Assembly (NCBI RefSeq): GCF_964355755.1
Contig: NC_092673.1
Location: 19,279,648 to 19,343,647, forward strand
Direction: 5' to 3'
DNA: 64,000 nucleotides
Source: Antedon mediterranea
Taxonomy: Eukaryota > Animalia > Echinodermata
The translations under genes were made by a program, and so were the position numbers. A model generated the notes under the pieces. The model saw only the letters and a program-made list of their open reading frames with translations, did no database searches and was not told the origin of the DNA. Below are positions 12,886 to 63,265 of the stretch, one piece after another (positions within the stretch are counted from its first letter, which is position 1; each line of letters begins with the position of its first letter).

Positions 12886-12993
12886 CTGATTTGAAATACA
12901 AAGAGCAAACCATTAGATGCCAGAAACTTAAAATAAAAAATTAACTTAATGAATAAAGTTGTTAAATTTAATATAATAGACCTAAAGTTATAC

Positions 12994-26631: not shown

Positions 26632-27131
26632 TCATCTTTGCAACAACTTATTAACCTCATCTATTTTGTCTTCACTCAGCAACCCTCGAGGAACAAAATC
26701 AAATATCAGACTCCAGCTGTCTGCATACTTCTTAAGGACAGGGAAGTTGTGTCTTGCATCAAGTCTTCTGATAGCGGAATCCTTAAGATTTTTTCCAAGA
26801 TTAACAATCTTCATTGTGTGTGCAGGAAATGATACTACCTCACGTTTCTTGACGTCTTTGAAAGCAGGAAGCTTTTCTGTGACTGTTGACTCGAAGCCAA
26901 ATTGTTCAGTTACTTTTATTGCATCAAACAGTACAGACAGATTTGTTTGACTCAATCGCCCATTCGCAGATAAAAGAGTTAACAAGTCAATTGTACTGGT
27001 AACTTTTTTCAACTCTTCAATGTTGCTTACTATTCCTATGAATAGGACTTGTAGCCTGTTAAGGAGTCCACGTTCATCAAACCATTGTGCAAAGTCTGTA
27101 ATCAAGTGTTTAAAATCATCCTCTGAGAAAT
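26632..27131 (-). CDS. Last coding exon: tandem death-effector-domain-like helical region
   Basis: Acceptor tatag|at. DFKHLITDFAQW...IDLLTLLSANGRLSQTNLSVL and HTMKIVNLGKNL...WSLIFDFVPRGLLSEDKI resemble DED patterns (F..LL..l...L / LF..Le..g.l...nl..L). Judged by eye only. Confidence 0.62.
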
Positions 27132-39100: not shown

Positions 39101-42100
39101 AAATATACGTTGTACACATGTTTTATAAACTCTTTCTGTTTAAGTGCATCTCGAATCATTTTAAAGGCCTTCTTTGTCTGGTTGTAAACAATTTAAATAA
39201 ATGAAAACATGGGGTTAAACTGTAATTTCTTTTAAATAATATCTAAATACTTCAAGTCCTATTAGAGTACTGTAAAGAATACATTCATATAACAACTTTT
39301 GATATGAATGTATTCGATACAGTACTCTAGTAGCTAGTTTCTTTACATTAGCTTTTAGAACAGAAATGTATACTTGATTGATTGCTAATTTTAATAATGC
39401 AAGTATTAACCTCATCATTTTGTTGTTTTTCAGTCTCACCAAGCTTACCCTTATGTGTACCTACAATAAGGATAGTTGGTTGGTGAACTTCATTCTCCTC
39501 ATCTTCTTTCACAATACGACTATGAGAATAAACTGACAGGATGTAAGATAATATGAACTGGAGATTGGTCCAATGATGTTTACACTTTTGCTGTAAAAAA
39601 GAAAGACTAGTTTAAAAAACATTTTATCTTTGTTCTAGTAAAATGAAATTAAGAAGTAAATGATTTCTAACCACAATTAAAATGGTTAGGTTTCAAATAT
39701 GTAAATGTATGCAGCTCATTTGGAAGGTATGAAATAAAACTCTTTGTAATGCATAAAATATATAGCAAAATACTTACTCCATTGGAATCAATATAAACAG
39801 CAGGATCATTGAGGTCTACACTTAGGTCGAACACTACAATATAAAGTGCTTGTAATGTCATGAACATCTGCAAAAACACAATTTGTTTTTATTCAAATAT
39901 TTGATTAATATGCTTTAAGCAAAGATTGTATAGCACCGCTACGCGGCGCAAGATAGGTGACTGCACGACTATCATTTTATTCTGTAGGTTGTCTTTTGAT
40001 AAACTGTGTTTATACATTTACTATTGATACTCTTTTTAATGAAGCATTTTTCTAGTACAAATTCATATAAAACTGTTAAAATCAGTTATGATTGAAAACA
40101 GTTACTGAAAATACTTTTTTTATTGATGTAGGCAAAATTAGTAATAACACTTTATATAAAGCAGTACCATGGAAAGATGTTTGCGATTACTGAATGAACA
40201 AAATAAACCTTGGTCATACCATTATGTTAGTATATACAGAGACATTTCATTTTAACTGTGTATAGTATTTAAACAATGTCAATATAATATTAACTTCAAG
40301 GGAAATACATATATTATAACTTACCCGATGTATACCATGGTATATTAATTGACCTCCATTATCCCAGATGTTAAATGTTTCTTCCAAGGGGTCCTCCTTT
40401 TTTTCCTCAACTTTCTTGATTACATCTTTATCTAACTGCTGCTCTGTATCAAATGTAACAGCTTTAGTAGCTGTATAAGAACCTGTAGTGGAAACAAGTG
40501 TTTTGGTCACTCTCACCACATGTAAACAAACATCACTTCTAAATTATTGTAAAAGTCATTAACATATTGTTATAGTTGTTCTGATTATCATCACTGTTTT
40601 AATTGTCATTATCATTATTGCAGTCTTCATTATCATTATCATTGTTACACTGAGTCACCATCATTGTTATCATCATTATAGTTTTAGTTGACACTGTCAG
40701 AGTAGAGGTAGAAAAGTATGACTGTCACCATAATTGTTACACAGGTTAAAGGTTGCCTTACCTCCACCTCTGATCACATACATTTAATAATTTTATAGGA
40801 AAATTAAAAGTTACTTTAAATTGGAAAATCTAATTAATAATCTAATTAATTCAAATAACTACAGCACAAACTTAATATCACAGAAATTGCAAATTAGCTA
40901 CAAAATGTAATGTATATGTATTATGTAATATGTAATAATAATAATTAGAATTTAATGGAAAGTTACATACTATCATTTTTGTAATCATTGTTGTCGTTAT
41001 TTTTGTAATCATCATTGTTGTCATCCTTATTGTAGTCAACAACAATACCATCATCATCCTCGACATCATCTGTAGGTGGTTTCATGTCAATCTGATAAAT
41101 AACACAAAAAATGGATATAAAAAAGAAATAAATGTTTATTCAAAGTTAAATACAGTTTTGTTTACAATTTAATATAAGAGAAAACTAATATTATTTACTC
41201 TCAAAAACAAAACCAATTTGTTAGAGTAAATTTTTAAAGGATTGGAGCAAAAAAAAAAATGAAATAGCTGCTCATAATGCATCATGATTCATTTAGAAAG
41301 AAAGCCTAAGTGACTGGTTTGCAATAGTCCTGTAGGTGCTACTTTATTCATTTTATGTTTTCATTACACAATTATTTACATACGTTTATAGTTTTCTTTT
41401 CTCTCAGTTTGTCAGTGACGAATTTTGTATACTGTTTTAAAGGATTACCTGTAGAGAAAAAAGACATTTGCACATATTATTACAGCAGATACATTGATAG
41501 GTGACAATACTTTAACTGATTGATTAATTAATGTAAAATTACAGTACATCAACAAACAATAGGTTGCGTGTTAAAGGATCATGGAGTAACAATTGGTGTA
41601 TGTATGTGAAAATATGACTGTTGACATCATACTACAGTTGTATGCATTTATTGAATTCCATTCTACATCTCAGTTTCATTGTGGGCCTGTTTGTGTCTAT
41701 GATAATGAGATCAAAGATAAATATTGTTACATTGACTATGATGATGGGAAGAGTAATATGCTAATTTGTATTCATGTTTACCACTATCAGCTTTAGCCTC
41801 TTTCCATGTTGTGCTTACAGTCCTTATCACTGCTATGCCATCTGTAACTTTATGTTCTTCCTCAAATCTGAGATACATATAATAATAATATAATAATTTG
41901 AAACCAACAATGAATGTCATTCATTTTTAGTGCTGTAAAATTCAATTTTCTCTTTTTAATTATAGATACCAGTAGTTACTATTTCAATAGTCTTTATTTA
42001 TAAAATACACATTTTAAATCAGTTATTTAGTCAACAATTAAAATGATCTTTCATTTAAAATTACAAAACAATGTTAAAATTTAATTCTATTATCTATTAT

Positions 42101-45100
42101 TGTTATAATTAGGCAGTACCTACATGTATTTTGTAATTTCAATTTTACTGTCCAACTACTTACATCTTTCCAAGACAGGCATTTATGAGGCATGTTTTAC
42201 CCACTCCTTCCTGTCCAATCACCTTAAGCATTCCAAGATTGACTGCGACAGATCCTCCTTTCAAAGCTTCCTTGTAAGCTTCCTGATACTCTAATTCACG
42301 AGCAGCAATATCAGATGGAATATCTGAAAATTGAATCAAGATTTTAATAGATTTTTAAAACATCTGGAGTAAATAAAGTTAAAAAAAAAAAAATCATCAA
42401 TCAAGCATGCCACATAAATCTGCAAACTAGCTCCATTCCATTATTACAGTATTTTGGATGAAAACAATCAACTGTTTTATTTATGATAAATAAAATCTCT
42501 CCATTTGTTATTAGTTGCACACTTTTTCGCCTTTTTACAGTACCGCACAGAAATAATGCTTTTTTTAAATAACATTAGCGTCTAATTCTCTCCTTACTGA
42601 AATCCCATTTTAATCACAATTGTGTTAAATTATATATAGATACAATCATACAACATACAGCAGCTCTTGTGATTCTTATTAAACTCACCACTCTCTGGCT
42701 TACGAAGTTTTGTTATCTGTTTGTCACTTGTCGGTTTCTGAAATTGTGTTTGAAATTGCTCATCAACAGTACTTGGTAAATCTAAAAAAATACCAAAACA
42801 AAAATATTACATATTACATATTTTCATAAAAAACACTATATTAAAAGTCACAGCTTGGCAAAACTCTTGAATTGTCATATGGTATCTTTAAACTTTTTCA
42901 ATGGTATAAGGTTATATAAAAGCTTGTGGGTGACTGTGTACAAGCAATCGACTATACATGAAAATGGTAAACCTCATTCATTCTGGATATACTATAATAA
43001 TAATGTATTTTTTTTAACTAAAATGTATACAGTTAACAACTACAGTTATTAATTATGTCCTAAAAAATGTGTGGAACTCAAACTCATCCAAACATATAGG
43101 CGTTATGCAACATTTTTTGACAGAGATCCTGAATCTAAATCATTTCTAGCACCATACGGTTGATTAGGATTTCAATGTGTAAAGTGAAAATAAAGTAATC
43201 CTGAAATGAATAACTGGTATGATTCAGAATTTGCCAGTAGGAATTATTGACCACCTATCGTAAGTTTTTAATATGCCTTGAACTTTTTAAATGTTTTTAT
43301 TTATATTCTGTTTTATGACCAGTAACCAATTTTGTTTTTATACCTGTGTGAAAACACAATAAAGATAACTTGAACTTGAGCCCACCATGGTTTGGGCTGA
43401 ATTTTGCCAATATAGACCTGGAATTGCATTTTTAAAGGCCTACAATAAAGGCACTGTTCTTTATACACTTGGTAGAGCTTGGTTATGCTTTGTGGGACTT
43501 GGTGTTTAGAATAACACATGTATGATGCTTAATTTTAGATACAGAAAAATAGTATTCTTAAGCTGGCTTAAAAATGTGTGAAGAAAATTCATTCATTGTG
43601 GAAACAAAAAATGGGATTAACAAGAAAATGTTTTATTTTTATATTCAATATTTATCTCCTCCTATCGTAAATTGTTTTCCTCGAAGGCGAATGTGGGAAG
43701 GAGGAGTTTGAATTTGTCTATTGGTTTTACCCATAGTAAAAAAATTAGTAGAATTTAAGTAGACTTATTAGTAGAAATAGCTCTATTTTCAGTAGTTTTT
43801 TAGTAGACCTTTTTATCTCGACTACTAAGGATTTTAACTGAATGAGTCAACGATGGAACGACTACTTCCCAGCTATAAAATAGATAGTTGATTAATATTT
43901 AACTGGCTATTATCAGTTTCTTTATAGTCTATTGATAGGTCATTGGTAGTCTTGTATAGCTATAATAAGTAGACAGTAGATAGATAGATATGATACTCAT
44001 AGATTTCTAATAGCTATCTGGTAGTCCATATCTATCTATTGTATAAAATAGATAGTTTATTAACAGTTACTGGCTATTATCAGTTTGTTTATGTCTATTA
44101 ATAGGTTGCTGGTAGCCTATTGTATAGCTATTGTAAGTAGACAATAGATAGATGCATACAACTGTGTTACTCACAGATTAAAAATAGTGAAAAATCTATC
44201 TAACACTATTAGTGGGGGTTTTGAATTATGCTAATGAGGTAAAACCTATTAGGAACTATCTAAATTCTACCTAAAATCTACTTATTAGTAGGTGCTTAAT
44301 AGGTAATAGAGCTATATCTATTAAGGGGATAACTTTTAAGGCGAATAGATATAGAGATATATCTACTAAGAACTTTTAATTAAGCGCCATCATTTACGGT
44401 AGTAACCTGGTACGCACGGCGCGCTGAAAATCCGGTGATTCAGCTCCTCGAAGAAGACGAATTATTATTTAAAATGTGTGAAGGAAATTCATCCATTGTG
44501 GAAACAAAAACTGGGATTTAACAAGAAAATTAGATTTTTATATTCAATATTTATCTCCTCCTATTGTAAATTGTTTGCCTTGAATGTGAATATCAATTGT
44601 ACATAGCATTATATATAAAATAGATTAGATTTAAAAAAAAAAAATCTACATTTTACATTTATGTGCAATTAATAAAGTTCAAATATTCCTTAACAATGCA
44701 TGTCCCCCGTCCGATTATTGTAACTAGTTTAAAGTGAAGCCTCCTATCAAAAGCCCCTTGAGGTTTATTGAAGGTCCCTTTCATCTTAAAATCATCATCA
44801 TCATCATCATCATTAAAATCTCTTTATTTTTGTTATGTGTACTGTTTTGATGTATTGAATAAAGAGATTGATTTGATTTGAAAAATGATTTATTTAATAT
44901 TTTTATTTACAAGGAATTTTAAAGTTTGCGTTTTTGTGTTATTTTTATCGTATTTATAGCAAAATAATTTACATCTTGCAACATATCACAACTTCCATGT
45001 ATACTACTATCCCACTGAATTATTTAATCTATAATAAACCTGTGAATGATATATCATAAATGTTAATTTTCTTTATCTGGACATTCTTCTTCACTTGATG

Positions 45101-48100
45101 AGAAATCAAATCTTTATCGTTTGTAATGAAAACTAGTTGATCCTAAAATTTCAATAATTAAAACTTCACTTACCTTCTAAGAAGTTTAAAATTTCAGTTT
45201 TACTTTGCTCCTCTATCCACCTGTTACTTTCTAAAACTGAGACAAGTGTATTTCCATCCTATTAAAAAAATGGGTTTAGTTAATAGTAGTTTTGAGAAAT
45301 TATTGATATACAATATAACACACTTTAATTACGCATCACATACATACAGTATTATGTCATGGCTCAAACATTTACCATCTAGAGATTGGATGAAAGAGCA
45401 TCATGTGATAACACATAGATTTACTATTTTTTAACATTGGTTGTAAATTAGGACGTGAATAGAAATTACTATTTGCTAATAAATGACATCAACTTGTACA
45501 GTGCGCCTATAACACCGCCTTCAACATTGAAAGATGGAGGAGAGAGATAAATTTAATAAAAGTTTACTTTGGAAATGTAGGTAGATGTGTTAAAATGTTT
45601 GAGCCATAATAGAAAACAACAAATAGTTTTACTATAAACTTTCAAAGCAAATAATATTTGGATACTATCCAGAAACAAATGAAATATCCCTGTATAATCC
45701 CAGTACACTACCTTCTTTGCAATGTTGCTGGTGTATAATACTGACAACAAACATTATGTGAAATTGGGTTTTTTTTGTCAACCCAAACCACAGCAAAAAT
45801 TACTGCTAAATAATGTGGTAAATAATCATAAATGTCGACTATTGATAAATGAAAACAAAATATAATATCTTACCATGGATCAAATGTAGTATAGTGTCAT
45901 TAAAATCTACTTACTGTACAATATCAATCACAAAATTTGAACATTAATAATTTAATACATATTTTATAAAATTGTACAAACAAATGTTTAGATGTTAAAC
46001 ATAATGTATGAGGCCAATAAGCAGTTAAATGAATTTAAATATAAATTTAGGTAATGGGAAATTTCAGTAAATTAAGTGCAACTTCTAGAATTTTTACTCA
46101 ATGGTAGAGAAAGTTGGTACATCCTTTCAGTACTGATTTTTAACACCCAATGAAACCAATATCATACTTAAGATAAGTTAGATATTAACGATAACAAATT
46201 TAGTTTAAACCATTTGCCTCAATGAAAATCATATCATATCATGAAGCCTGATACCATCCCATCATCCAATGTACCAAAACAGGAATTTGGTGAACAATAC
46301 CGTGTAATAAACAAAATTAAGGTAATTCTCAGGATGACAATTATATTTGACTACATAAATCCCATCATATCTGTATTTATTTGCTTTGTGTACAGTGTGA
46401 CTTGGACAATTTTTAGTTATTTCCCAAAGTTTATTTATTCGAGAACCATTTGTGGGCACTTAATACTAGTATATTCAATTTTAACTAGCAACTTTATAGA
46501 ATCATTTTTCCAAAAAAGGTACGGGACTGTTTGAAAAGAATAATTTCATATTATGAAAAAAAAGATCCTAGGTTGGAAAAGGATCTCTTTAAGGCCATGT
46601 TCATAATTAGGTGGGTAGATGGACAGAAGCATTTTTTTTATAAGGTAAGGGAGGGAGCAGGTTATTCATTAATAATTATTTTTTATTAAAATTAGATTCT
46701 ATTAATTTTTTTAACATACATTTTTTTATTTGTTGTTTTATTATTAGTCAATGTAGTTGTCCCATTTTATTTCATATTTACAATTAATTAGACCATTGTC
46801 AATCGTTGCTATCTTTACAGCTACATAGGAGCAATTTATATTTGTTTTACGGTCAAAAATATGTAAACAAAATTATACTGATTCACCTGAACATATAAAA
46901 AAAGTAGATTTTTTTGTTCATTAAGAAAATTAAAGATGTATGTTATGTGATAGGAACAATGCCATGCAATAAACAAAATTAAGTTAATTCTCAGGATGAC
47001 AATTATATTTGACTACATAAATTCCATCATATCTGTATTGCTTTGTGTACAGTGCAATTTTCAGTTATTTACCAAAGTTCTTGTATTCAAGAAGCATCTG
47101 TGAGCACTTACTAGTATATTATATTTTAGCGAGAAATCATTTTTCCAAAAAAGTCATAAGATAAGAGACGGAACTTTTCTTAAAAGCATTCAGTTTGAAA
47201 AGAATAATTTCATATTACCTTTCTTTTTTAAATTGCATTACTCAAACAATTTAGATTTTGAAAACTAACAAAACATTGTTTACATTTCTCTTCCTTTTGT
47301 GGCCAAATGTTTGCACAAAAAGATCCTAGGTTGGAAAAGGATTTCTTTAAGGCCATTTTCATAATTAGCTGCATTTTTTTTGTAAGATAAGGGAAGGAGC
47401 ACATTATTAATTAATAATCGTTTTTTCTTAAAATCAGATTCTATTAATTTTTTTAACATAAACATTTTTAGTTGTTTAGTAGTTGTCGCATTTTATTTCA
47501 TATTTACAATTAATTAGACCGTTGTCAATAATTGTTAATTAATAACTGAATATATTAAAAAATAGATTTTTTTGTTGATTAAGAAAATTAAAGATTTATG
47601 TTATATGATAGGTAACTGTACACTTTAAATCAGATCATAAATCATATATAACTATTTAGTTATTTTTTTATTTGGTTTGTTTTAATCAAATTTGATTTTT
47701 GTTAATGTGCTTACTTTTTTCTCTCATTAAATGGTTTACTTTACAGATCTATATAATGTTAGCTTATTACACTAGCAAATCCCTGTACATTTACCTCATT
47801 TTGCAATGCTACTGGTGCCCCATGCTGAATGAGACAAGTCACTATTTCTAAGGTAGCTGTACATACACGCCTCAGATATGAATGTAATGGAGTGTCACCA
47901 TCCAGGAAAGGAATCATAATGAAGTTTATAAATACTGACAACAGACATTATGTGAAATTGTTTGTTTTTTGTCAATACAAACAACAACAATTGCTGCTAA
48001 ATATTATGGTAAATAATCATAATTATCATTATTAATAAATGAGTAGAACAAAATAGAATGGTTTACCACAGCATATCTATAGAATGTTAGCTTCTTACAC

Positions 48101-51100
48101 TAGCAAATCCCTGTACATTTACCTTATTTTGAAATGCTACTGGTGCCCCATGCTGAATGAGACACGTCACTATTTCTGAGGTAGGGTCTCTATGCCTCAG
48201 ATAGTAATGTAATAGAGTGTCACCATCCTGGAAAGGAATCATAATGAAGTTTATAAATACTGACAACAGACATTATGTGAAATTGTTTGTTTTTTTGTCA
48301 ATACAAACAACAACAATTGCTGCTAAATATTGTGGTAAATAATCATAATTATCATTATTAATAAATGAGTAGAACAAAATAGAATGGTTTACCACAGCAT
48401 ATCTATAGAATGTTAGCCTATTACACTAGCAAATCCCTGTACATTACCTTCTTTTGCAATGTTGTTGGTGTATAATACTGACAACAGACATTATGTGAAA
48501 TTGGGGGTTTTTTTGTCAACCCAAACCATAGCAAGAATTACTGCTAAATAATGTGGTCAATAATCCTAATTGACATGATTGATAAATGAGAACAAAATAG
48601 AATATCTTACCATGGATCAGATCTAAAGATTGTTAGCCTATTACTATTACAGAAGCATTTTTTTGTAAGGTAAGGGAGGGAGCAGGTTATTAATTAATAA
48701 TTATTTTTTTATTAAAATCAGATTCTATTAATTTTTTTGACATAAGCATTTTTATTTGTTATTTTATTATTAATCAATGTAGTTGTCCCATTTTATTTCA
48801 TCTTTACAATTAATTAGACCATTGTCAATCATTGTTATCTTTACAGCTACATATGACCAATTTATATTTGTTTTACGGTCAAAAATAAGTAAACAAAATT
48901 ATACTGATTCACCTGAATATAAAAAAATGTCCAATTGCATTGCTCGAACAATTTTAGATTTTGGAAACCACTATAAACTAAACATTATTTAGTTTTACAT
49001 TTCTCTTCCATTTGTGGCAAAATGTTTGCAAAAAAAAAAAATGCTGGAAAAAGATCTCTTTAAAAGGCCATATTCAATCTGTAATTAGCTGGATATACTG
49101 ACAGAAGTATTTTTTTGGAAGGTAAGGGAGGGAGCAAGTTATTAACAATTAATAATTCTTTTTTATTAAAATCAGATTCTATTAATTTTGTTAACAATAA
49201 CACAAACATTTTTGTTTGCTATTTTATTATTTGTCAACAAACTGTAGTTGTCCAATTTTATTTCATATTTATAATTAATTAGACCATTTTCAATTGTTGT
49301 TATCTTTACAGCTACATATGACCAGGGAGTTGTCATTTTACAACTCCCTGATATGACCAATATATATTTATTTTATGGTAAAAATATTTAAACAAAATTA
49401 TAGTGATTCACCTGAATATAAAAAATTACAAGTAGATTGTTTTTGTTCATTAAGAAAAAAGATATATGTTATTTGATGAATAACTGTATACTTTAAATCA
49501 GTTATCATAAATCATATATAACTGTTTAGTTATTATTTTAATTTGATTTCTTTTAATAAAATTTGATTTTTGTTAATGTGCTTACTTTTTTCTCTCATTG
49601 AATGGTTTACTTCAGCATATCTATATAATGTTAGCTTATTACACTAGCAAATCCCTGTACATTTACCTTATTTTGCAATGCTACTGGTGCCCCATGCTGA
49701 ATGAGACAAGTCACTATTTCCAAGGTAGCTGTAAATCCCATCACCAGATATGAATGTAATAGAGTGTCACCATTCTGGAAAGGAATCATAATGAAGTTTA
49801 TAAATACTGACAACAGACATTATGTGAAATTGTTTGTTTTTTTTTGTCAATACAAACAACAACAATTGCTGCTAAATATTGTGATAAATAATCATAATTA
49901 TCATTATTAATAAATGAGTAGAAAAAAATAGAATGGTTTACCACAGGATATCTATATAATGTTAGCCTATTACACTAGCAAATCCCTGTACATTACCTTA
50001 TTTTGCAATGCCACTGGTGCCCCATGCTGAATGAGACACGTCACTATTTCTAAGGTAGGGTATCCTCTCCCCAGATATGAATGTAATGGAGTGTAACCAT
50101 CCTGGAAAGGAATCATAATGAAGTTTATAAATACTGACAACAGACATTATGTGAAATTGTTTGTTTTTTTTGTCAATACAAACAACAACAATTGCTGCTA
50201 AATATTGTGATAAATAATCATAATTATCATTATTAATAAATGAGTAGAACAAAATAGAATGGTTTACCACAGCATATCTATATAATGTTAGCTTATTACA
50301 CTAGCAAATCCCTGTACATTACCTTATTTTGCAATGCCACTGGTGCCCCATGCTGAATGAGACACGTCACTATTTCTAAGGTAGGTGTATATCCACCCCA
50401 CAGATATGAATGTAATGGAGTGTTACCATTCTGGAAAGGAATCATAATGGAATTTATAAATACTGACAACAGACATTATGTGAAATTGTTTGTTTTTTTT
50501 TGTCAATACAAACAACAACAATTGCTGCTAAATATTGTAGTAAATAATCATAATTATCATTATTAATAAATGAGTAGAACAAAATAGAATGGTTTACCAC
50601 AGCATATCTATAGAATGTTAGCTTATTACACTAGCAAATCCCTGTACATTTACCTTATTTTGCAATGCTACTGGTGCCCCATGCTGAATGAGACACGTCA
50701 CTATTTCTAAGGTAGGTGTATATCCACCCCACAGATATGAATGTAATGGAGTGCTACCATTCTGGAAAGGAATCATAATGGAATTTATAAATACTGACAA
50801 CAGACATTATGTGAAATTGTTTGTTTTTTTTTGTTAATACAAACAACAACAATTGCTGCTAAATATGGTGGTAAATAATCATAATTATCATTATTAATAA
50901 ATGAGTAGAACAAAATAGAATGGTTTACCACAGTATATCTATAGAATGTTAGCCTATTACACTAGCAAATCCCTGTACATTTACCTTATTTTGCAATGCT
51001 ACTGGTGCCCCATGCTGAATGAGACAAGTCACTATTTCTAAGGTAGGTGCAGAATATCCAATCACCAGATAGTCATGTAATGGAGTGTCACCAGACTGGA

Positions 51101-54100
51101 AAGGAATCACAATAAAGTTTATAAATACTGACAACAGACATTATGTGAAATTGTTTGTTTTTTTTGTCAATACAAACAACAACAATTGCTGCTAAATATT
51201 GTGGTAAATAATCATAATTATCATTATTAATAAATGAGTAGAACAAAATAGAATGGTTTACCACAGCATATCTATAGAATGTTAGCCTATTACACCAGCA
51301 AATCCCTGTACATTACCTTATTTTGCAATGTTACTGGTGTATAATACTGACAGACGTTATGTGAAATTGGGGGGTTTTTTTGTCAACCCAAACCATAGCA
51401 AGAATTACTGCTAAATAATGTGGTCAATAATCCTAATTGACATGATTGATAAATGAGAACAAAATAGAATATCTTACCATGGATCAGATCTAAAGATTGT
51501 TAGCCTATTACTATTACAGAAGCATTTTTTTGTAAGGTAGGGAGGGAGCAGGTTATTAATTAATAATTATTTTTTTAATTAAAATCAGATTCTATTAATT
51601 TTTTTGACGTAAGCATTTTTATTTGTTATTTTATTATTAATCAATGTAGTTGTCCCATTTTATTTCATCTTTACAATTAATTAGACCATTGTCAATCATT
51701 GTTATCTTTACAGCTACATATGACCAATTTATATTTGTTTTACGGTCAAAAATATGTAAACAAAATTATACTGATTCACCTGAATATAAAAAAATGTCCA
51801 ATTGCATTGCTCGAACAATTTTAGATTTTGGAAACTACTATAAACTAAACATTATTTACATTTCTCTTCCATTTGTGGCAAAATGCTTGCAAAAAAAAAA
51901 ATGCTGGAAAAAGATTATTCTTTTTATTATTCTTTATTAAAAACAAACCAATTGGCAGCAAATCTGCTGAATTGCATGGTAAGGAACAATATACATTCAA
52001 AAGACAAGAAAAGTATAGTCATTATAAAACAAAATAATCGCAATTACAAAATATATTTAAATGTAAACATAAAGTTTAAAAAAATAGTCAAATTGCAAGG
52101 ATATAGTATATACATTATAACTTAATTACAGTATAAAAATATAATCTTAAATTTAAGTTGCAGTATTTACATTGGTTTCTTAATTAAAGTCGACTTCAGA
52201 CAATTAAATAATTACAATTAAACATTTACAAAAACATCAAATACAAAATTAAATGAGAATTAAGAATAAATTGAGTCAAATTCAAGAAATTTCTACTAGG
52301 CCAATATGTCAAATTAATTAATATCTGGTTACATTATACATTTATTTTCTTTTATTATTTAATCAATACTGTTGAGGCAGCGAGTGAGAAACGGGATTGC
52401 ACTGTTTCCATATCTATTTGTCTTATTTTTGGGGACCTGGTATGTATTACTTTTCCGTAAGGCCATATTATGCGTACTCATATTTCTCGGAAACCACTCA
52501 GCATATCTATACGCATTAGCACATTTCTTTGCAAATTCAATGCAAAGTTGGTAACGTCTCTCAGTCATGGTATGGAGTCCCAACTGCTTCAGTGATTCCG
52601 TGTATGATACGTAATCCGCACCCACGATAATGCGGCATGCTCTCTTTTGGATTCGCTCCAATTGGTAGGTCTGTTCCTTGGTTATACTGCTATGCCAAAC
52701 CGGGACAGCGTACTCACTTATTGGGCGAACATAACACGTATACACGGAGGTCAAATCTTCAGTCGGGACACCAAACCGTTTGAGACGTGATAGCATGTAT
52801 AGTCGTCGACTACTTTTACTAATAATATCATTAAGGTGGGACTGCCAGCCAAGATTGGACTGGATAGTCAAGCCCAGAAGCCTGGTCTCAGACACCACCT
52901 CGAGCTCCACCCCAGCGATTTGAAGGTGAGGAGGGTTAGGCGGTTCCTTCATAAAACAAACCTGCATAGCCTTGCACTTACTGGGGTTGAGCTCGAGACG
53001 GTTGTCCGTTGCCCAAGCATCCAGATCCTGAACATCCACTCCAATCTGGCTGGGTTGATTTGCGGGACGAACTTCTACAAGGCTGAGGTCATCAACATAC
53101 TTAAAACTTTCAGCCAGAGACTCCTCAGAGGCATTATTGATAACTACCATGAAGATTATGGGGCCTAGCTTGGTGCCTTGTGGGACGCCACAGGAAAGCG
53201 TCTCCCACCGTGACAAGGCAGAGTGGTATTGCACTCGTTGGCGACGAGATGTAAGGAAGTTTGTTATCCATGGCAGTAACTCGCTTCTGACACCAAGCTC
53301 GAAGAGTCTCTGAATAGCTAAAGTATGATCGATACAGTCAAACGCCTTGGAGAAGTCCGTCACAATAAGGGTGCCAACATTCTTACCCTTGTCTGTACCT
53401 TTAAAAAACAAATCAAGTATTTCAATAAGACAATGGGCAGTGGATGATCCTTTTATGCCACCATATTGGTTACGATCAATTTCTTTACCTATATCTTCCA
53501 TAACCCAGTTGGAAACAAATCCCTCGCATACCTTCGCAAGAATCGATGTCAAAGATATTGGTCTTAATTTAGAGATTGAGGCAGGGGTAGTCTTTGGGAT
53601 AGGGGAAATTGTGGCATCCTTCCACATTTTAGGAACAATTCCCTCTTTTAGAGATGAGTTAAATAAGTCACAAACGGGAACGCTGAACTCGCACGCGAAC
53701 TCTTTAAGAAGTCTCCCAGGGAGGTCGTCGGGTCCAGCCGCTTTCTTACTTTTCAAATTTTTCAAGTTATTGTACATTTCCCACACTTCAATCCTAGGTG
53801 GAGCATTTGCAGGTAGAAAGGTAGGTAATTGTTTTAAGTTGATTGGGGGTCTACCTTGGGTGACAGAAGCAAATTCATTACTTATAGCTTCTGATCTGTG
53901 TACGTAAACTATGCAATCTAAAAAATCGAACCATGCTAAAATTCCCTGGCCACTCAAATCAAGATCTTGCAAATGATATCAATAACCACTTTGCATCTGT
54001 GTGCCGACAGCTTCCCCCAGTTGATGTAAATGCTCTTCCTGCATATTTGCCTTCACCTGAACCCCCGCCAAAAATTTTTCCTGGACAAGTCAGACGATTG

Positions 54101-57100
54101 ATTAATAAACTAAAGTCAAAGAAGTCTAGTCACCCTGATGACTTGCCAATTAAACTTATAAAAGAATTCGCCTTTGAAATTGCTACTCCACTTGCCCATA
54201 TTTTTAATTGTTGTCTTAATGAAGGTGTATTTCCCGAGTTATGGAAGTTAGCAACAGCCATTCCTGTTCCAAAAGTTCCTAATGTGACATCATTTCAAGA
54301 CCTCAGGCCAATTTCACTTACCCCCATCTTTGCCAAGTTGTTTGAGTCATTCCTTACTGATTGGGTGACTAGTGACATTCATCAACATTTAGATATTAAA
54401 CAATTTGGTTGCCGTAAAGGCTCATCTACTAGCCATTATCTTGTGGACATGATTAAGTCTGTAATTAGTGATATTGAAAAAGGTGATTCTTTTGTGGATA
54501 TTTGTGCCGTTGATTTTACGAAGGCCTTCGACCGAATTGACCATACGGTCATTGTTAGAAAGCTTGTCGACATCGGAGTGAGAACATCTATTATTCCCAC
54601 CATCTGTAGCTTTCTGACGGATCGTAAAATAAATACTAAACTTAGTTCATCCTTTTCCCCTTATGCCAACATCACATGTGGGATTCCACAGGGTACAAAG
54701 CTTGGGCCAATTTTGTTTCTTATATTAGTCAATGATATCTCTATGGAAGGCTGCAGATGGTGGAAGTATGTTGATGATCTCACTCTTGGTGACACTGTTA
54801 AACATGGTAATGCTCCTAAACTTCAATCTTGTCTTGATGACCTTACTGAGTGGTGTGATACAAATCACATGGTCCCTAAACCCTCTAAGTGTCATATCAT
54901 GAGAGTTAATTTTTTGAAAAGAAATATTCCCCCTCCTAATTATTACCTTAGCGGTACAACACTTAATGTTGTTTCGTATATGAAGCTCCTTGGACTTATA
55001 ATCCAGGATGACTTGAAATGGGATAATAATGTCAGTGACATGGTAAAAAGAGCATCCAAAAGGTTGTATACGTTATATATCCTTAGAAGGGCCAATGTAC
55101 CAGTTCATGATATGATATCCGTTTATGTTTGTTATATTCGCCCAATCTTAGAATACGCCTGCCCTGTGTGGCATGGAAGCATCAATAAGGCCCAAATATC
55201 GACCATTGAAAGAGTGCAAAAGAGAGTTTTACGTATTATTCTGGGTCCCGCTTTCCTTACGTATGATTCTTGAGCTTACTGATATGACCACTCTCGCATC
55301 CAGACGAGAGACGTTGATTCAAAAATTTGGAGAAAGGCTCTTGAAATCGGAATTGTACAGAACTATTTTGCCCGACTACCGCATTATTAATAGAGAGCTT
55401 AGATCAACCACGGTAGATAAACCCCTAATTAATATACCTGTTTGCAGAACTAACCGTCTTAAGACTTCGCCTGCCCTTACCATAAGTAGAATCCTTAATT
55501 CAAACAGTACCTGATCACGCTGAAGATGGCTATGTTATAAATATTTACATATATTGGCCTATGCATTTGTATATAAATTTTGGAATCTTTTTAACATAAC
55601 ATAATTTTATTTTTTTAACTGATTTTTTCAAATTTTTTAATGTTTTGTATAAATTTTTGTATTTTTTTAAATGTTTCTGTTTCCATATATTTATATATAT
55701 ATTTTTGTAAATCAACAATTTCAGCCTTCGGGCTGCATGTTTTTTATTGTATAAACCTGAATAAATAAATAAATAAAAAAATAAAAAAAAATCTCTTTAA
55801 AAGGCCATATTCAAACTGTAATTAGCTGGATATACTGACAGAAGTATTTTTTTGGAAGGTAAGGGAGGGAGCAAGTTATTAACAATTAATAATTCTTTTT
55901 TTATTAAAATCAGATTCTATTAATTTTGTTAACAATAACACAAACATTTTTGTTTGCTATTTTATTATTTGTCAACATACTGTAGTTGTCCAATTTTATT
56001 TCATATTTATAATTAATTAGACCATTTTCAATTGTTGTTATCTTTACAGCTACATATGACCAGGGAGTTGTCATTTTACAACTCCCTGATATGACCAATA
56101 TATATTTATTTTATGGTAAAAATATTTAAACAAAATTATAGTGATTCACCTGAATATAAAAAATTACAAGTAGATTGTTTTTGTTCATTAAGAAAAAAGA
56201 TATATGTTATTTGATGAATAACTGTATACTTTAAATCAGTTATCATAAATCATATATAACTGTTTAGTTATTATTTTAATTTGATTTCTTTTAATAAAAT
56301 TTGATTTTTGTTAATGTGCTTACTTTTTTCTCTCATTGAATGGTTTACTTCAGCATATCTATATAATGTTAGCTTATTACACTAGCAAATCCCTGTACAT
56401 TACCTTATTTTGCAATGCTACTGGTGCCCCATGCTGAATGAGACACGTCACTATTTCTGAGGTAGGGTATAGACTCCTCAGATGTACATGTAATGGAGTG
56501 TCACCATCCTGGAAAGGAATCAAAATCATGAAGTTTATAAATACTGACAACAGACCTTATGTGAAATTGGGGTTTTTTCACAATACAAACAACAACAATT
56601 AATGCTAAATAAAGTGGTAAATAATCATAATTATCATTATTAATAAATGAGTAGAACAAAATAGAATGGTTTACCACATCATATCTATAGAATGTTAGCC
56701 TACTACACTAGCAAATCCCTGTACATTACCTTCTTTTGCAATGCTACTGGTGCCCCATGCTGAATGAGACAAGTCACTATTTCTAAGGTAGGTGCAGTAT
56801 ATCGACCCCGCAGATATGAATGTAATAGAGTTTCACCATACTGGAAAGGAATCATAATGAAGTTTATAAATACTGACAACAGACATTATGTGAAATTGTT
56901 TGTTTTTTGTCAATACAAACAACAACAATTGCTGCTAAATATTGTGGTAAATAATCATAATTATCATTATTAATAAATGAGTAGAACAAAATAGAATGGT
57001 TTACCACAGCATATCTATAGAATGTTAGCCTATTACACTAGCAAATCCCTGTACATTACCTTATTTTGCAATGTTACTGGTGTATAATACTGACAGACGT

Positions 57101-60100
57101 TATGTGAAATTGGGTTTTTTTGTCAACCCAAACCATAGCAAGAATTACTGCTAAATAATGTAGTCAATAATCCTAATTGACATGATTGATAAATGAGATA
57201 AAAATAGAATATCTTACCATGGATCAGATCTAGAGATTGTTAGCCTATTACTATTACAGAAGCATTTTTTTGAAAGGTAAGGGAGGGAGCAGGTAATTAA
57301 TTAATAATTATTTTTTATTAAAATCAGATTCTATTAATTTTTTTGACATAACCATTTTTTATTTGTTATTTTATTATTAATCAATGTAGTTGTCCCATTT
57401 TATTTCATCTTTACAATTAATTAGACCATTGTCAATCATTGTTATCTTTACAGCTACATATGACCAATTTATATTTGTTTTACAGTCAAAAATATGTAAA
57501 CAAAATTATACTGATTCACCTGAATATAAAAAAATTACAAGTAGATTTTTTTGTTTGTTAAGAAAATTAAAGATATATGTTATTTGATAGGCAACTGTAA
57601 ACTTTAAATCAGTTATCATAAATCATATAAACTATTTAGTTATTATTTTTATTTGGTTTGTTATAATCAAGTTTGATTTTTGTTAGTATGTTTATTTTTT
57701 TCTCTCATTTAATGGTTTACCGCAGCATATCTACAGAATGTTAGCCTATTACACTAGCAAATCCCTGTACATTACCTTATTTTGCAATGCTACTGGTGCC
57801 CCATGCTGTACGAGACACGTCACTATATCTTACCATGGATCAGATCTAGTGATTGTTAGCCTATTTACTTAATGTAAGTTATTAGTCATTAAATCTACTT
57901 ACTGTACAATATCAAACACAAAATTTGAACATTAATAAAATACATATTTCATAAAATTGTACAAACAAATGTTCAGCATTCAAAATATGAGGCCAATAAG
58001 AAGTTTAATGAATTTATATATAAATTTAGGTAATAGGAAATTTCAGTAAATAAAGTGCAACTTCTAGAATTTTTACTCAATGGTAGAAAAATTGGTACAT
58101 ACTTTCAGTACTGATTTTTAACACCCAATGAAACCATTATCATAATTAAGCTATTAAGATATTAGATATTAACGATTAAAAAAAATTTAGGTTAAACCAT
58201 TTTCCTCAATGAAAATAATATCATATCATGAAGCCTGATACCATCCCATCATCAAATGTACCAAGACAGGAATTTGGTGAACAATACCATGCACTAAACA
58301 AAATTAAGGTAATTCTCAGGATGACAATTATATTTGACTACATAAATTCCATCATATCTGTATTTATTTGCCTTGTGTACAGTGCGACTTAGACAATATT
58401 CAGTTATTTACCGAAGTTTATGTATTCGAGAATCATCTGTGGGCACTTAATTACCAGTATATCAAATTTTAACTGGCAACTTTAATAGAATCATTTTTTC
58501 CAAAAAGTCATAAGATAAGATATGGCACTGTTTGAAAAGAATAATTTCATATTAAATTTCTTTTTGAAATTGCATTGCTCAAACATTTTTACTAAACTAA
58601 ACATTATTTACATTTCTCTTCCTTTTGTGCAAAATGTTTGTTTGGAAAAGGATCTCTTTAAGGCCATATTCATACTGTATGTGATAAGACTGTCAGAAGT
58701 ATTTTATTGTAAAGTAAGTAAAGGGCAGGAGCAGGTTATTAACAATTAATAATCCTTTTTTATTGAAATCAGATTCTATTTTTAACATAAACATTTTTTA
58801 ATTTGTTATTTTATTAATAGTCAATGTAGCATGTCCCATTTTATTTCGTATTTACAATTAATTAGACCATTGTCAATCGTTATCTTAAAGTACATACAGT
58901 AATAATGAGCAATTTATATTTGTTTTACGGTCATAAAAATGTTAACAACATTGTAGGTTTCTAATATGAAGATTTTTTTGTTCATTAGAAATAAAAGATT
59001 TATGTTATTTGATATGTAACTACACATAATCAGTTCATAAATCAAATGAACTATTTAGTTTTTTATTTGGTTTGTTGTAATCAAGTCTTCACTTTTTCTC
59101 TAATTGTAACATTTTTCACAAAATCATGTCTGGTATGCTTCATTTAGATTCTGCTAAGCTTTGATTTATTTATATTATTATTTTTAGCCTAATGTTGTTA
59201 ATCAGTGCATGCAGGTTATACCTCCATCATCAGCGTGTATTTATATTATTATTTTTAGCCTAATGTGGTTAATCAGTACATGCAGGTTATACCTCCATCA
59301 TCAGTGTGTATTTATATTATTATTTTTAGCCTAATGTGGTTAATCAGTACATGCAGGTTATACCCCCATCATGAGTGTGTATTTATATTATTATTTTTAG
59401 CCTAATGTGGTTAATCAGTACATGCAGGTTATACCCCCATCATCAGTGTGTATTTATATTATTATTTTTAGCCTAATGTTGTTAATCAGTACATGCAGGT
59501 TATACCTCCATCATCAGTGTGTATTTATATTATTATTTTTAGCCTAATGTTGTTAATCAGTACATGCAGGTTATACCTCCATCATCAGTGTGTATTTTAT
59601 TATTATTTTTAGCCTAATGTGGTTAATCAGTACATGCATGTTATACCTCCATCATCAGTGTGTATTTATATTATTATTTTTAGCCTAATGTGGTTAATCA
59701 GTGCATGCAGGTTATACCCCAATCATCAGTGTGTATTTATATTATTATTTTTAGCCTAATGTGGTTAATCAGTACATGCAGGTTATACCTCCATCATCAG
59801 AGTGTAAATATATTATATTATTTTTAGCCTAATGTGGTTAACACGTTCACTGCCACGGCGTATTTATACGTCAAAAATTGCGTGTCGCTACTTGCCAAGA
59901 CGTAATACTACGTCAAAATCGTAGCACTTTTGTATTGTATGTAGAATCGCTGGCAGTGGTGATTGGAACAGGAATTATCGCATGGCAGTTTATGAATGAT
60001 GTACGTAAACGATAATCTAAAAATAAATGTCATATGTTTGTTTGTGTTTATTCCCTCATGCATTGAATATGGTTGATACGATGGCGCCCTCACACTCAAT

Positions 60101-62604
60101 ATAATCATCTCAAACATGTCATAAATTGCGCTAATAGTAAATAAAAATAATAAAGGATGAAATGATTCAGTGTGGTTTACTGTTTTTATCTCTCGATGAT
60201 AGGTTTGACCGATTTTAGCGCGGAAAATCCCCGACGTATATTTACGTTCCTGGCAAAGTCAATAAAATTGTTGGACCATTGCCAGTGACGTATTTATACG
60301 TCTCAACGGTTTTTCCCGCCATCGTATTTTGAATGACATCATGATAGTCTGTGACCAGATGTTACACTTTCAAACTGTAATTTAATATGTAAACGGGACT
60401 TGGCACTGGGACAGAAATTACGGAAAATGCCTTGGCAGTCAATGTGTTAATCAGTGCATGCAGGTTATACCCCCATCATCAGTGTGTATTTATATTATTA
60501 TTTTTAGCCTAATGTGGTTAATCAGTACATGCAGGTTATACCTCCATCATCAGTGTGTATTTATATTATTATTTTTAGCCTAATGTGGTTAATCAGTGCA
60601 TGCAGGTTATACCTCCATCATCAGTGTGTATTTATATTATTATTTTTAGCCTAATGTGGTTAATCAGTACATGCAGGTTATAACTCCATCATCAGTGTGT
60701 ATTTATATTATTATTTTTAGCCTAATGTGGTTAATCAGTGCATGCAGGTTATACCTCCATCATCAGTGTGTATTTATATTATTATTTTTAGCCTAATGTT
60801 GTTAATCAGTACATGCAGGTTATACCTCCATCATCAGTGTGTATTTATATTATTATTTTTAGCCTAATGTGGTTAATCAGTACATGCAGGTTATACCTCC
60901 ATCATCAGTGTGTATTTATATTATTATTTTTAGCCTAATGTGGTTAATCAGTGCATGCAGGTTATACCTCCATCATCAGTGTGTATTTATATTATTATTT
61001 TTAGCCTAATGTTGTTAATCAGTACATGCAGGTTATACCCCCATCATCAGTGTGTATTTATATTATTATTTAGTCTAATGTGGTTAATCAGTGCATGCAG
61101 GTTATACCTCCATCATCAGTGTGTATTTATATTATTATTTTTAGCCTAATGTCGTTAATCAGTACATGCAGTTTACCCCATCATCAGTGTGTATTTATAT
61201 CAGTATTTTTAGCTTAATGTGGTTAATCAGTACATGCAGTTTATACCTCTATCATCAGTGTGTATTTATATTATTATTTTTAGCCTAATGTTGTTAATCA
61301 GTACATGCAGGTTATACCCCTATCATCAGTGTGTATTTATATTATTATTTTTAGCCTAATGTGGTTTAATCAGTACATGCAGGTTATACCTCCATCATTA
61401 GTGTGTATTTATATTATTATTTTTAGCCTAATATGGTTAATCAGTACATGCAGGTTATACCCCCATCATCAGTGTGTGTTTATATTATTATTTTTTAGCC
61501 TAATGTGGTTAATCAGTGCATGCAGGTTATACCCCCATCATCAGTGTGTATTTATATTATTATTTTTAGCCTAATGTGGTTAATCAGTACATGCAGGTTA
61601 TATCCCCATCATCAGTGTGTATTTATATTATTATTTTTAGCCTAATGTGGTTAATCAGTGCATGCAGGTTATACCCCCATCATCAGTGTGTATTTATATT
61701 ATTATTTTTAGCCTAATGTGGTTAATCAGTGCATGCAGGTTATACCCCCATCATCAGTGTGTATTTATATTATTATTTTTAGCCTAATGTGGTTAATCAG
61801 TACATGCAGGTTATCCCCATCATCAGTGTGTATTTATATTATTATTTTTAGCCTAATGTTGTTAATCAGTACATGCAGGTTATCCCCATCATCAGTGTGT
61901 ATTTATATTATTATTTTTAGCCTAATGTTGTTAATCAGTACATGCAGGTTATACCCCCATCATCAGTGTGTATTTATATTATTATTTTTAGCCTAATGTT
62001 GTTAATCAGTACATGCAGGTTATCCCCATCATCAGTGTGTATTTATATTATTATTTTTAGCCTAATGTTGTTAATCAGTGCATGCAGGTCATACCAACAT
62101 CATTAGTGTGATATTGCAAAATAATTGTAATTCATTATATAAAAAAATGTTATAATAACTAATAAAGAAAATTACAATCTCTATAATTTTAAACTTTAAT
62201 TAAATTTCTTCTTTGATAATATTATAAAAATAATGTACATCTTGTTTTAAATACCTTATTGATAGATTTCACAAGATCTGGTTGCGTCTTACAGATTTGT
62301 TTAATTGTTTGCAAATCACTCCCGTACCACAAAGCTTCTTCTAATTTGTTCCTGTTAAAATGTAAGAAATAATGAATTATTACACTATTTTATGAAAATG
62401 ATGATTGATGGAAATAATCAATATCATCATTATATTTGATGAGAATGAGCCCTTTAATTGTAATATTTATGATTTCATAATCTTTTAAGAAAGTTTTAAA
62501 GTATTGCTAACTATTCAAACATTTTAATTTGTTTTTAACAGTTTACATATTGAAGCTGGTTATTTTTGTTGGATTTGAAATAAAAAACAAACGTACCTTT
62601 CCAT
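26632..62604 (-). CDS. Multi-exon ankyrin-repeat / ROC GTPase / COR / DED-like protein (ROCO family), ~1,240 aa
   Basis: Hand-spliced GT-AG exons with consistent phases: 62597-62604, 62255-62351, ANK exons (56730-56840, 56404-56508, 50985-51095, 50654-50761, 50323-50430, 49997-50101, 49667-49774, 48123-48227), 45174-45258, 42689-42781, 42164-42323, 41782-41867, 41384-41448, 41049-41091, 40325-40482, 39778-39867, 39411-39590, 38926-39177, 38194-38388, 37743-37937, 37203-37505, 37035-37106, 36047-36263, 33699-33761, 26632-27131. They total 3,723 nt in one open frame. Confidence 0.88.
27645..32470. repeat. 85-bp intronic tandem repeat (~56 copies)
   Basis: Unit gtcagggtaggggtatataccatgtgtttctataaaggaagtaaagttgtaaggtttgcatagagtgcaaataaacactagtaaa. 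One further partial unit at 33601-33655. Confidence 0.98.
32472..33601. mobile_element. Unclassified ~1.1-kb insertion with ~148-bp internal direct repeats
   Basis: gtcgtgaggtggtttcccgattaa...cgagacctg at 32472-32619 and 32663-32810, with partial copies at 32619-32662 and 33547-33601. The 85-bp satellite resumes straight after. Confidence 0.5.
34285..35968. repeat. 88-bp intronic tandem repeat (~19 copies)
   Basis: Unit tactactactggtaagaggaatgaagatatcacagctaatagcagcatgttgtaacaatgtatagattatcaataatgattctgatag-like, 88-bp period. Confidence 0.96.
36047..39177 (-). CDS. COR-domain exons of the ROCO gene
   Basis: EVPLKWMRF, LNFLYDLGEIVY, AVLDPMQLVEIVTAFV, GILEEKLLRRLW, LVELMIQLGFICE, FFVPLRL and LPDVLFP are COR-type motifs. 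A distal CILCGVC...H...C cluster follows. Confidence 0.85.
39411..42323 (-). CDS. ROC GTPase exons of the ROCO gene
   Basis: G1 GQEGVGKT (exon 42164-42323), G2 TDGI (41782-41867), G3 IWDNGGQ..Y...H (40325-40482), ALYIVVFDLS (39778-39867), G4 ILIVGTHKG (39411-39590). Confidence 0.9.
47795..47902 (-). pseudogene. Ankyrin pseudo-exon with acceptor AG->TG
   Basis: The + strand reads tccaggaaag at 47901 where sister cassettes read (tc)ctggaaag. The exon itself is open: DGDTPLHSYLRRVCTATLEIVTCLIQHGAPVALQNE. Confidence 0.75.
47795..56840 (-). CDS. Array of single-ankyrin-repeat phase-0 exons (8 intact, 1 with a broken acceptor)
   Basis: Exons of 105/108/111 nt encode xGxT(P/L)LHxYLxxxx(x)(P/A)T(L/S)EIVTCLIQHGAPVALQNK, each with a ctttccag acceptor and GTAA donor. 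Cassette period is 326-331 bp. Confidence 0.92.
51916..53893 (-). mobile_element. 5'-truncated LINE (CR1/L2-group-like) RT fragment with 3' UTR
   Basis: ORF 52359-~53893 has KAAGPDDLP, RPISLT, QYG, DFSKAFD, GVPQGTKLGP and KYVDD. The 3' end has the hairpin aattcagcagatttgctgc and an aataa-rich tail. Confidence 0.93.
53894..55790 (+). mobile_element. Second, different 5'-truncated LINE (CR1/L2-group-like) RT fragment, frameshifted near the C-terminus
   Basis: ORF 53933-55273 has RPISLT, QFG, DFTKAFD, GIPQGTKLGP and KYVDD, continuing in another frame to 55514. The 3' end has the hairpin tcagccttcgggctgc and an (aata)n tail. Confidence 0.93.
59175..62110. repeat. 71-bp intronic tandem repeat (~32 copies), interrupted by a MITE
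   Basis: Unit ttttagcctaatgtggttaatcagtacatgcaggttatacctccatcatcagtgtgtatttatattattat; cctccatca recurs at 59221 and 59292. Confidence 0.96.
59842..60446. mobile_element. piggyBac-type non-autonomous element (605 bp)
   Basis: TTAA duplicated at 59838-59841 and 60447-60450. TIRs cacgttcactgcca / tggcagtcaatgtg. Subterminal palindromes such as gacgtatttatacgtc. Confidence 0.9.
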
Positions 62605-62762
62605 TTCAAAAATACAGTGTGTTCATTTAACAATTATTAATACGGATAGCTTCTAGTGTAAAAGTAAGCCTACACATTCTGTTCTGAAAATATGAAAGGT
62701 AAAACATAATTTCATCAGACAGAAACCTTTGCATTAAAGGCTACGACAATTCAATTGCACCG

Positions 62763-63265
62763 GTATGCTGGCATTACTGAATGAAGATGACCTGTATGCT
62801 GGCATTACTGAATGAAGATGATCTGTATGCTGGCATTACTGAATGAAGATGATCTGTATGCTGGCATTACTGAATGAAGATGATCTGTATGCTGGCATTA
62901 CTGAATGAAGATGACCTGTATGCTGGCATTACTGAATGAAGATGACCTATATGCTGGCATTACTGAATGAAGATGACCTGTATGCTGGTGTTACTGAATG
63001 AAGATGACCTGTATACTGGTGTTACTGCATGAAGATGACCTGTATGTTGGCGTTACTGAATGAAGATGACCTGTATGCTGGTGTTACTGAATGAAGATGA
63101 TCTGTATGCTGGTGTTACTGCATGTAGATGACCTGTATGCTGGTGTTAGTGAATGAAGATGATCTGTATGCTGGTGTTACTGCATGTAGATGACCTGTAT
63201 GCTGGTGTTACTGAATGAAGATGACCTGTATGCTGGTGTTACTGAATAAGATGACTCCTGTGCTA
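62763..63265. repeat. 31-bp minisatellite (~16 copies)
   Basis: Unit tgtatgctggcattactgaatgaagatgacc, shifting to a ggtgtta variant half-way along. Confidence 0.95.

Follow-up and report, generated by a model that had tools for sequence, protein, structure and literature searches.

Putative heritable turnover of ankyrin exon cassettes in a predicted ANK-Roc-COR-tandem-DED gene of Antedon mediterranea

Receptors with one repeat per exon

Brown-algal ROCO-LRR genes encode one LRR per exon, contain dead cassettes and have recently arisen paralogues whose differences lie in the LRR domain, as described in part of PMC3341825. Splice variants of these genes appear in passages of PMC11378527, which also state that reports of somatic recombination are lacking. 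The gene analysed here lies in a 64,000-nucleotide stretch of Antedon mediterranea DNA, referred to as the window, and resembles the algal genes (Ectocarpus, Saccharina) in several respects. In both, N-terminal repeats are carried on Roc-COR with one repeat per symmetric exon (here 8 of 8), inactive cassettes lie within the repeat domain, close paralogues differ mainly in their repeats (here P0033 and P0032, both automatic models), variable sites fall on the predicted binding face, and genes undergo birth and death. The algal LRR exons are 72 nt long and in phase 2, whereas the ankyrin exons of the window are 105-111 nt long and in phase 0 with a loop of variable length. Opposite-strand cassettes are found in the algal genes and not in the window gene, which belongs to an animal and, unlike them, ends in a C-terminal tandem death-effector domain (DED). 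Splice variants are reported for the algal genes, whereas only one annotated pair is available here, in a paralogue. With its ankyrin repeats, phase 0, lack of inverted cassettes and DED, the window gene works like a brown-algal ROCO-LRR gene but is not a member of that family.

Other systems share parts of this design. Brown-algal NB-ARC-TPR genes also have one repeat per exon and coding-strand dead exons and are candidate immune receptors (part of PMC3341825), but combine TPR with an NB-ARC ATPase where the window gene combines ankyrin with a Roc GTPase. Internally conserved fungal NLRs (Podospora NWD/HET-E type) have repeats that are homogenised within a gene yet hypervariable, a death-type effector domain, and gain, loss and shuffling put down to unequal crossover and conversion, according to portions of PMC13449251. 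They possess a STAND ATPase instead of Roc-COR, and the units of the window gene include an intron homogenised along with the framework. Portions of PMC13449251 also cite truffle ankyrin NLRs diversified by mini-exon splicing and mention internally conserved hypervariable repeats outside fungal NLRs. DARPins are alike in having an N-cap, self-compatible internal repeats, a C-cap and variation in the beta-turn and helix 1 (parts of PMC8683736 and PMC4308713). They are engineered and have 33-residue repeats, in contrast to the 35-40 residues, variable-length loop and fixed positions 2 and 33 seen in the window. Sections of PMC12314368 describe ankyrin-bearing expansions in corals, with no ROCO among them.

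Our literature search, in which subscription journals were thinly covered, found nothing on Antedon with ROCO or ankyrin or on crinoid ankyrin-ROCO genes; crinoid proteins may be listed in the supplements of ROCO surveys. No published account was found of a ROCO GTPase family that combines exon-cassette ankyrin sensors with a death-effector output. The human ROCO proteins DAPK1, LRRK2 and MFHAS1 have a Roc-COR core and are encoded by conserved single-copy genes with no known hypervariable exon array. DAPK1 carries ankyrin repeats before Roc-COR and a death-fold domain after it, an order shared with the window gene, which differs in its hypervariable exon array; DAPK1 and LRRK2 have kinases. 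Arthropod Dscam, likewise a recognition protein with tandemly duplicated exons, selects a single exon from each cluster through RNA pairing. Its exons are mutually exclusive, whereas introns in the window allow all cassettes in and no pairing was found in the four regions searched. Echinoderm immunity includes large TLR and NLR families and SpTransformer.

Gene model and domain order

The window gene is encoded on the minus strand from 62604 to 26632 and comprises 27 exons with borders fixed by coordinates. The resulting model is 1,266 aa long, contains zero internal stops and uses GT-AG at every intron. Its order is start exon, N-cap, eight intact ankyrin exons, C-cap, linker, Roc GTPase, COR, linker and a tandem-DED last exon. 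Outside the cassette array, the parts are:

62597..62683, minus: start exon (5' UTR and ATG at 62604), ending in phase 2; its N-terminus matches paralogue models P0001, P0032 and P0044
62255..62351, minus: N-cap exon, 97 nt, phase 2-0
45174..45258, minus: C-cap exon, 85 nt, phase 0-1, beginning DGNTLVSVLES
39411..42781, minus: linker and Roc GTPase, 8 exons, with P-loop GQEGVGKT in 42323-42164
36047..39177, minus: COR region, 6 exons
33699..33761, minus: short linker exon, phase 1-1, deduced from splice sites and frame
26632..27131, minus: last exon, predicted tandem death-effector domain and stop

The original prediction, that the N-cap ends and the C-cap starts in phase 0, agrees with the exon model in both coordinates and phases. 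The caps, which it called unique, are so within the window, whereas paralogues carry near-identical ones, with 33 of 34 aligned N-cap residues identical in P0032.

P-loop and switch motifs of Roc are present in the model. Pfam Roc matches are weak for single exons, and the linker-Roc part is identical at 249 of 258 residues to P0033, which passes the Pfam Roc cut-off. The G4 motif (39411-39590, minus) is THKG, without the usual aspartate. Relatives of the P0034/P0150 type have THMD in place of the THKG of the window gene's subfamily, a difference that may alter nucleotide specificity. An Asp/Asn low-complexity insert inside Roc (40971-41091, minus) varies widely in length among paralogues. The COR call was made via relatives, with a Pfam scan that covered these and single exons rather than the spliced model: residues 730-945 share 93.5% identity with P0025, in which PF16095 is found, and P0011 (74% over 771 aa) passes the COR-A profile cut-off. 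Judged by its sequence, the window gene is a ROCO family member with COR directly after Roc and a predicted GTPase. A NACHT or NB-ARC ATPase is absent; the core is Roc-COR and the product hence no NLR/STAND receptor. An Rfam search gave 0 matches.

The last exon is predicted to fold with a pLDDT of 90.4 into two packed death-effector domains of the caspase-8/cFLIP prodomain type. All 28 rows listed by Foldseek are tandem DEDs of caspase-8, cFLIP or vFLIP, with TM up to 0.76 and a best E of 0.0036, no DED row reaching E 0.001. The Pfam DED match is weak (E 0.0028), and a PDB sequence search with this exon returned no useful match.

Among the public proteins listed, annotation covers only 220 residues of the gene model, through P0002, which is identical to residues 860-1079; the rest is matched at 100% by no listed protein. 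Since annotation misses most of the gene, the ANK-ROCO family is probably under-counted. P0002 uses an alternative short terminal exon (34026-34090, minus) that would drop the tandem DED and could be either a prediction artefact or a DED-less isoform.

Several other elements are found elsewhere in the window. A long open frame at 6603-9176 (minus) matches reverse transcriptase and GIY-YIG, and from this pairing we take it to be a Penelope-like element. A frame with a PHD finger and an OTU-like match (12968-14065, minus, with small exons to about 11900) is possibly part of a transposon-borne gene. At 21204-25674, a 1.9-kb block is duplicated at 96.5% within a 100-bp satellite, representing a real duplication or an assembly effect.

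Ankyrin cassettes and their turnover

The array between the caps contains intact ankyrin exons, inactive units and repeats:

59167..62115: minisatellite of 71-bp units lying in the intron that follows the N-cap, with about 600 bp of other DNA inside (about 59842-60440)
57776..57830, minus: 5'-truncated cassette remnant, 3' half and donor retained
57060..57082, minus: emptied cassette, exon tail and donor left
56730..56840, minus: ankyrin exon A1, 111 nt, phase 0-0; Pfam Ank E 0.0039, under cut-off
56404..56508, minus: ankyrin exon A2, 105 nt, phase 0-0; protein identical to a P0032 cassette
52359-53978, minus, and 53888-55273, plus: two LINE-type reverse transcriptase pieces in the A2-A3 intron; RVT_1 E 5e-25 and 8.5e-20
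51317..51339, minus: emptied cassette, donor only
50985..51095, minus: ankyrin exon A3, 111 nt, phase 0-0
50654..50761, minus: ankyrin exon A4, 108 nt, phase 0-0; Pfam Ank over cut-off, borders joined head-to-tail in public run X5
50323..50430, minus: ankyrin exon A5, 108 nt, phase 0-0
49997..50101, minus: ankyrin exon A6, 105 nt, phase 0-0
49667..49774, minus: ankyrin exon A7, 108 nt, phase 0-0
48448..48470, minus: emptied cassette, donor only
48123..48227, minus: ankyrin exon A8, 105 nt, phase 0-0; Pfam Ank over cut-off
47795..47902, minus: ninth cassette A9, full length, open frame, acceptor TG instead of AG
45712..45736, minus: emptied cassette, donor only

The repeated unit of about 330 bp consists of one exon and one intron, cassette introns being 221-223 nt long. 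As originally predicted, all eight intact cassettes are 0-0 with near-identical splice signals, the 12 acceptor bases being invariant and the donor occurring in two variants. All cassettes are on the coding strand and no inverted copy was found. The inactive units comprise one TG-acceptor copy (A9), one truncated copy and four emptied ones, that is, five deleted remnants plus A9. In A9, the first internal AG would yield a 76-nt frame-breaking exon. Its TG acceptor and a private A4 base at 50754 occur in no aligned public-run contig, which fits private mutation and assembly error alike because contigs drop rare variants. A8 has a private base 11 nt upstream of its donor. The full-length cassettes (9 of 9) keep frame across three lengths while the introns carry non-triplet gaps.

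All 256 subsets of the intact cassettes translate in frame to the same stop, as the original prediction held for its 2^8 subsets, an arithmetic that applies to any tandem of symmetric exons. By the logic of exon shuffling, a duplicated exon persists only if it is symmetric, and the 0-0 phase is therefore expected in any such array. Seven of the 17 non-ankyrin internal exons of the gene are also 0-0, seven of them consecutive through Roc-COR. Phase symmetry alone proves little for the array.

The two LINE pieces (52359-55273) are different, oppositely oriented and slightly overlapping, and split the array between A2 and A3. Looping out of a cassette by them was ruled out, both lying in one intron and sharing only two 25-nt matches. 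Four satellites are located in introns or upstream of the gene, at 27646-32470 (85 bp), 34293-35969 (88 bp), 59167-62115 (71 bp) and 62759-63255 (31 bp).

Duplications of 1.2-1.4 kb, at 92-95%, relate the three blocks of the array to one another, and there are additional local tandem copies. A4 and A5 are one base apart in codons 1-13. A1 and A8 show 0 differences at aligned upstream-intron sites and differ at 8 of 39 coding sites. Twelve informative sites form 66 pairs, of which 28 fail the four-gamete test (Rm 5), a pattern that can also arise from recurrent mutation. Public contigs break off within the 3' half that the cassettes share (63 nt), and cassette order therefore cannot be phased from them; their summed depth over a cassette is 5-16 times that of the C-cap bin and is not a copy number here.

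A search with a COR exon identified 29 proteins (28 from Antedon mediterranea and one from Anneissia japonica), of which 24 are encoded on a single 36.19-Mb contig. Matches to ankyrin, Roc, COR-A and DED are all present in the full-length relatives P0034 and P0150, whose genes lie on other contigs. Paralogues were compared as proteins from automatic gene models, many of them fragmentary. The two cassettes before the C-cap in P0033 agree with those of the window at no more than 9 and 10 of their initial 13 residues, and P0032 has A2 exactly and not A1. Across the window and three paralogue models, 14 of 15 cassettes are distinct, with lengths of 35-40 residues. Repeat counts in paralogue models, many of them fragments, range from 2 to at least 11. 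Among 9 of 13 listed relatives from Anneissia japonica, all partial models, none has two or more near-identical cassettes (seven have one motif match and two none).

P0001 carries the N-cap, two cassettes and two tandem Roc-COR modules and could be a genuine double ROCO or an artefact of fused prediction. P0013, P0024, P0026 and P0023 have the same Roc-COR type with other heads or tails (N-terminal DED, kinase, death domain), which suggests domain swapping across this ROCO family.

Duplications, deleted remnants, mosaic cassettes and differing paralogue sets, although the traces at the locus are read from one haplotype, support a putative heritable turnover of cassettes in the DNA. They support the copy-number change by crossover put forward in the original prediction. 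We consider it probable that this is an intact ANK-Roc-COR-tandem-DED gene for what is likely a variable sensor inside the cell, and that its diversity comes mainly from exon-plus-intron units being gained, lost and exchanged heritably.

Splicing, variable codons and readings of the array

Possible transcript evidence for the cassettes comes from public run X5, which is RNA by guess only. Three of its contigs join the last base of a cassette to the first base of a cassette with no intron between, a joint absent from the three other runs, and its loose ends resemble the N-cap and C-cap exons. These joints support the predicted exon borders for the gene family, and neither for this gene specifically nor for cassette order. 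Of the 75 entries for public-run contigs over 41300-47980, the 15 covered include no exon-exon joint and so say nothing on skipping. One paralogous gene is annotated with two isoforms, X1 (P0280) and X2 (P0046), that differ by exactly one 36-residue cassette. In the parts of PMC5737279 that describe it, the 2017 NCBI pipeline retained alternative variants only with transcript support.

This isoform pair speaks in favour of combinatorial exon skipping as the main diversifier, in which one allele would give tens to hundreds of combinations across cells or conditions. Such skipping would be helped by the in-frame subsets and by the identical splice signals that make cassettes interchangeable, and splice variants of repeat exons are described for brown-algal ROCO genes in passages of PMC11378527. 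A weak hint is given by an X5 loose end that resembles the P0030 N-cap followed by a cassette starting like the second one of P0030, an ambiguous match made by eye from a two-contig consensus. Against this, the pair is the only one among the paralogue clusters looked up and belongs to another gene. In cassette donors, 7-8 of the 9 consensus positions are matched, and acceptors contain 13 pyrimidines, within the ranges of the 17 other exons (5-9, median 7, and 9-16, median 11). The cassette splice sites look constitutive, as strong as or stronger than the others of the gene. The 221-223-nt introns permit ordinary sequential splicing, and the 0-0 phase is shared with other exons of the gene. Docking-selector pairing between a cassette intron and four unique regions was equalled by 47-56 of 60 shuffles, which leaves room for short pairings elsewhere. 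A 33-nt inverted repeat (79%) shared by cassette introns and intron 1 was dropped as a docking site, since 54 of 60 shuffles pair as well and its use would remove the N-cap and break the frame. Exon skipping as the main diversifier is unlikely on this evidence, and we place some skipping in the window gene at about an even chance. The skipping proposed originally is thus possible and annotated once in a paralogue, but comes without a pairing signal and with splice sites of constitutive appearance.

Entropy in the window cassettes peaks at codons 1, 3, 8, 11, 12 and 13, and largely the same codons vary within P0150 (8 repeats) and within P0157 (6 repeats), models whose frameworks are distinct from each other and from that of the window. 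The nearest framework is found in the same gene or subfamily for 37 of 40 cassettes. By alignment to solved ankyrins and DARPins, we take the variable codons to be ankyrin positions 3, 5, 10, 13 and 14 and the following loop. Placement on the binding face relies on this alignment and on published work because a single-sequence fold of P0030 was of low confidence (pLDDT 46.8). According to parts of PMC4308713, designed binders randomise positions 2, 3, 5, 10, 13 and 33, on one binding surface. Four of these six positions vary in the window cassettes, while positions 2 and 33 hardly vary. In 4 of 4 runs from two organisms, public-run contigs thin out at the loop (50714-50731). Cassette variation appears confined mainly to predicted binding-face codons.

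Among the eight intact cassettes, whose pairs are not independent, pairwise distance is 0.033 for the upstream intron, 0.036 for the downstream intron and 0.038 for the last 21 codons, in contrast to 0.22 for the 5' part. In the same non-independent pairs, pN is 0.208 and pS 0.053 in codons 1-11, with the opposite direction in the last 21 codons (pN 0.025, pS 0.081). Across nine cassettes, segregating sites make up 10 of the 30 in codons 1-10 and 27 of the 217 in introns (p 0.006 by Fisher's test), and the last 21 codons (8 of 63) are on a par with the introns (p 1.0). Minimum changes in codons 1-10 amount to 12 non-synonymous on 22.6 sites versus 2 synonymous on 7.4 sites, both small counts. 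Synonymous changes in codons 1-13 (4 on 9.7 sites) exceed the intron rate, indicating that patch conversion or hitch-hiking contributes. Overall, these patterns suggest selection for diversity at the 5' binding-face codons, with positive selection short of formal proof.

An alternative is that units of a decaying gene cluster rich in repeats were passively duplicated in tandem, without selection for diversity. The satellites and LINEs that fill the region, the remnants and dead acceptor within the array and the many fragmentary paralogue models are all consistent with this idea. The same codons, however, vary in three independent frameworks, all nine full-length cassettes hold their frame over three lengths next to introns with non-triplet gaps, and the frame is open over all 27 exons. 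We regard purely passive duplication as quite improbable. A programmed rearrangement of the cassettes in the somatic DNA of immune cells is extremely improbable: all that speaks for it here is an anatomy of fixed caps with interchangeable and emptied units, a RAG-type heptamer, in the form that we take to be its motif, is absent from the gene and matches the window once, at 10252, no cassettes are inverted, and germline events account for all traces. It was once proposed for Ectocarpus, as a hypothesis in part of PMC3341825, and passages of PMC11378527 state that even in brown algae no somatic recombinants are on record.

Under the preferred explanation of heritable turnover, unequal crossover and gene conversion between 330-bp units would drive the gain and loss of cassettes, with phase-0 symmetry as the precondition for survival of duplicated units. 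Misaligned exchange would homogenise introns and framework, while selection would maintain differing residues at the beta-turn, helix 1 and following loop that make up the putative binding groove. The stacked repeats between fixed caps may bind a ligand, and binding may switch the Roc-COR GTPase, upon which the tandem DED could recruit partners of the caspase-8/cFLIP type. Single-cassette skipping would probably add to the variety in a secondary role. By analogy with the systems above, the window gene is a likely candidate for an immune sensor.

The fixed unique caps make germline shuffling, splicing and somatic change testable against one another. Recurrence of the brown-algal design with another repeat type, in an animal, points to convergence on exon-per-repeat receptors. 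A more far-reaching possibility, which we consider doubtful, is a natural DARPin library: ankyrin-ROCO-DED immune receptors encoded on multiple chromosomes, the groove of which would be rebuilt between generations by exchange and within the animal by skipping, with caspase-8-type DED signalling. If true, this two-level ankyrin-ROCO-DED scheme would represent a new variable-receptor system in a deuterostome.
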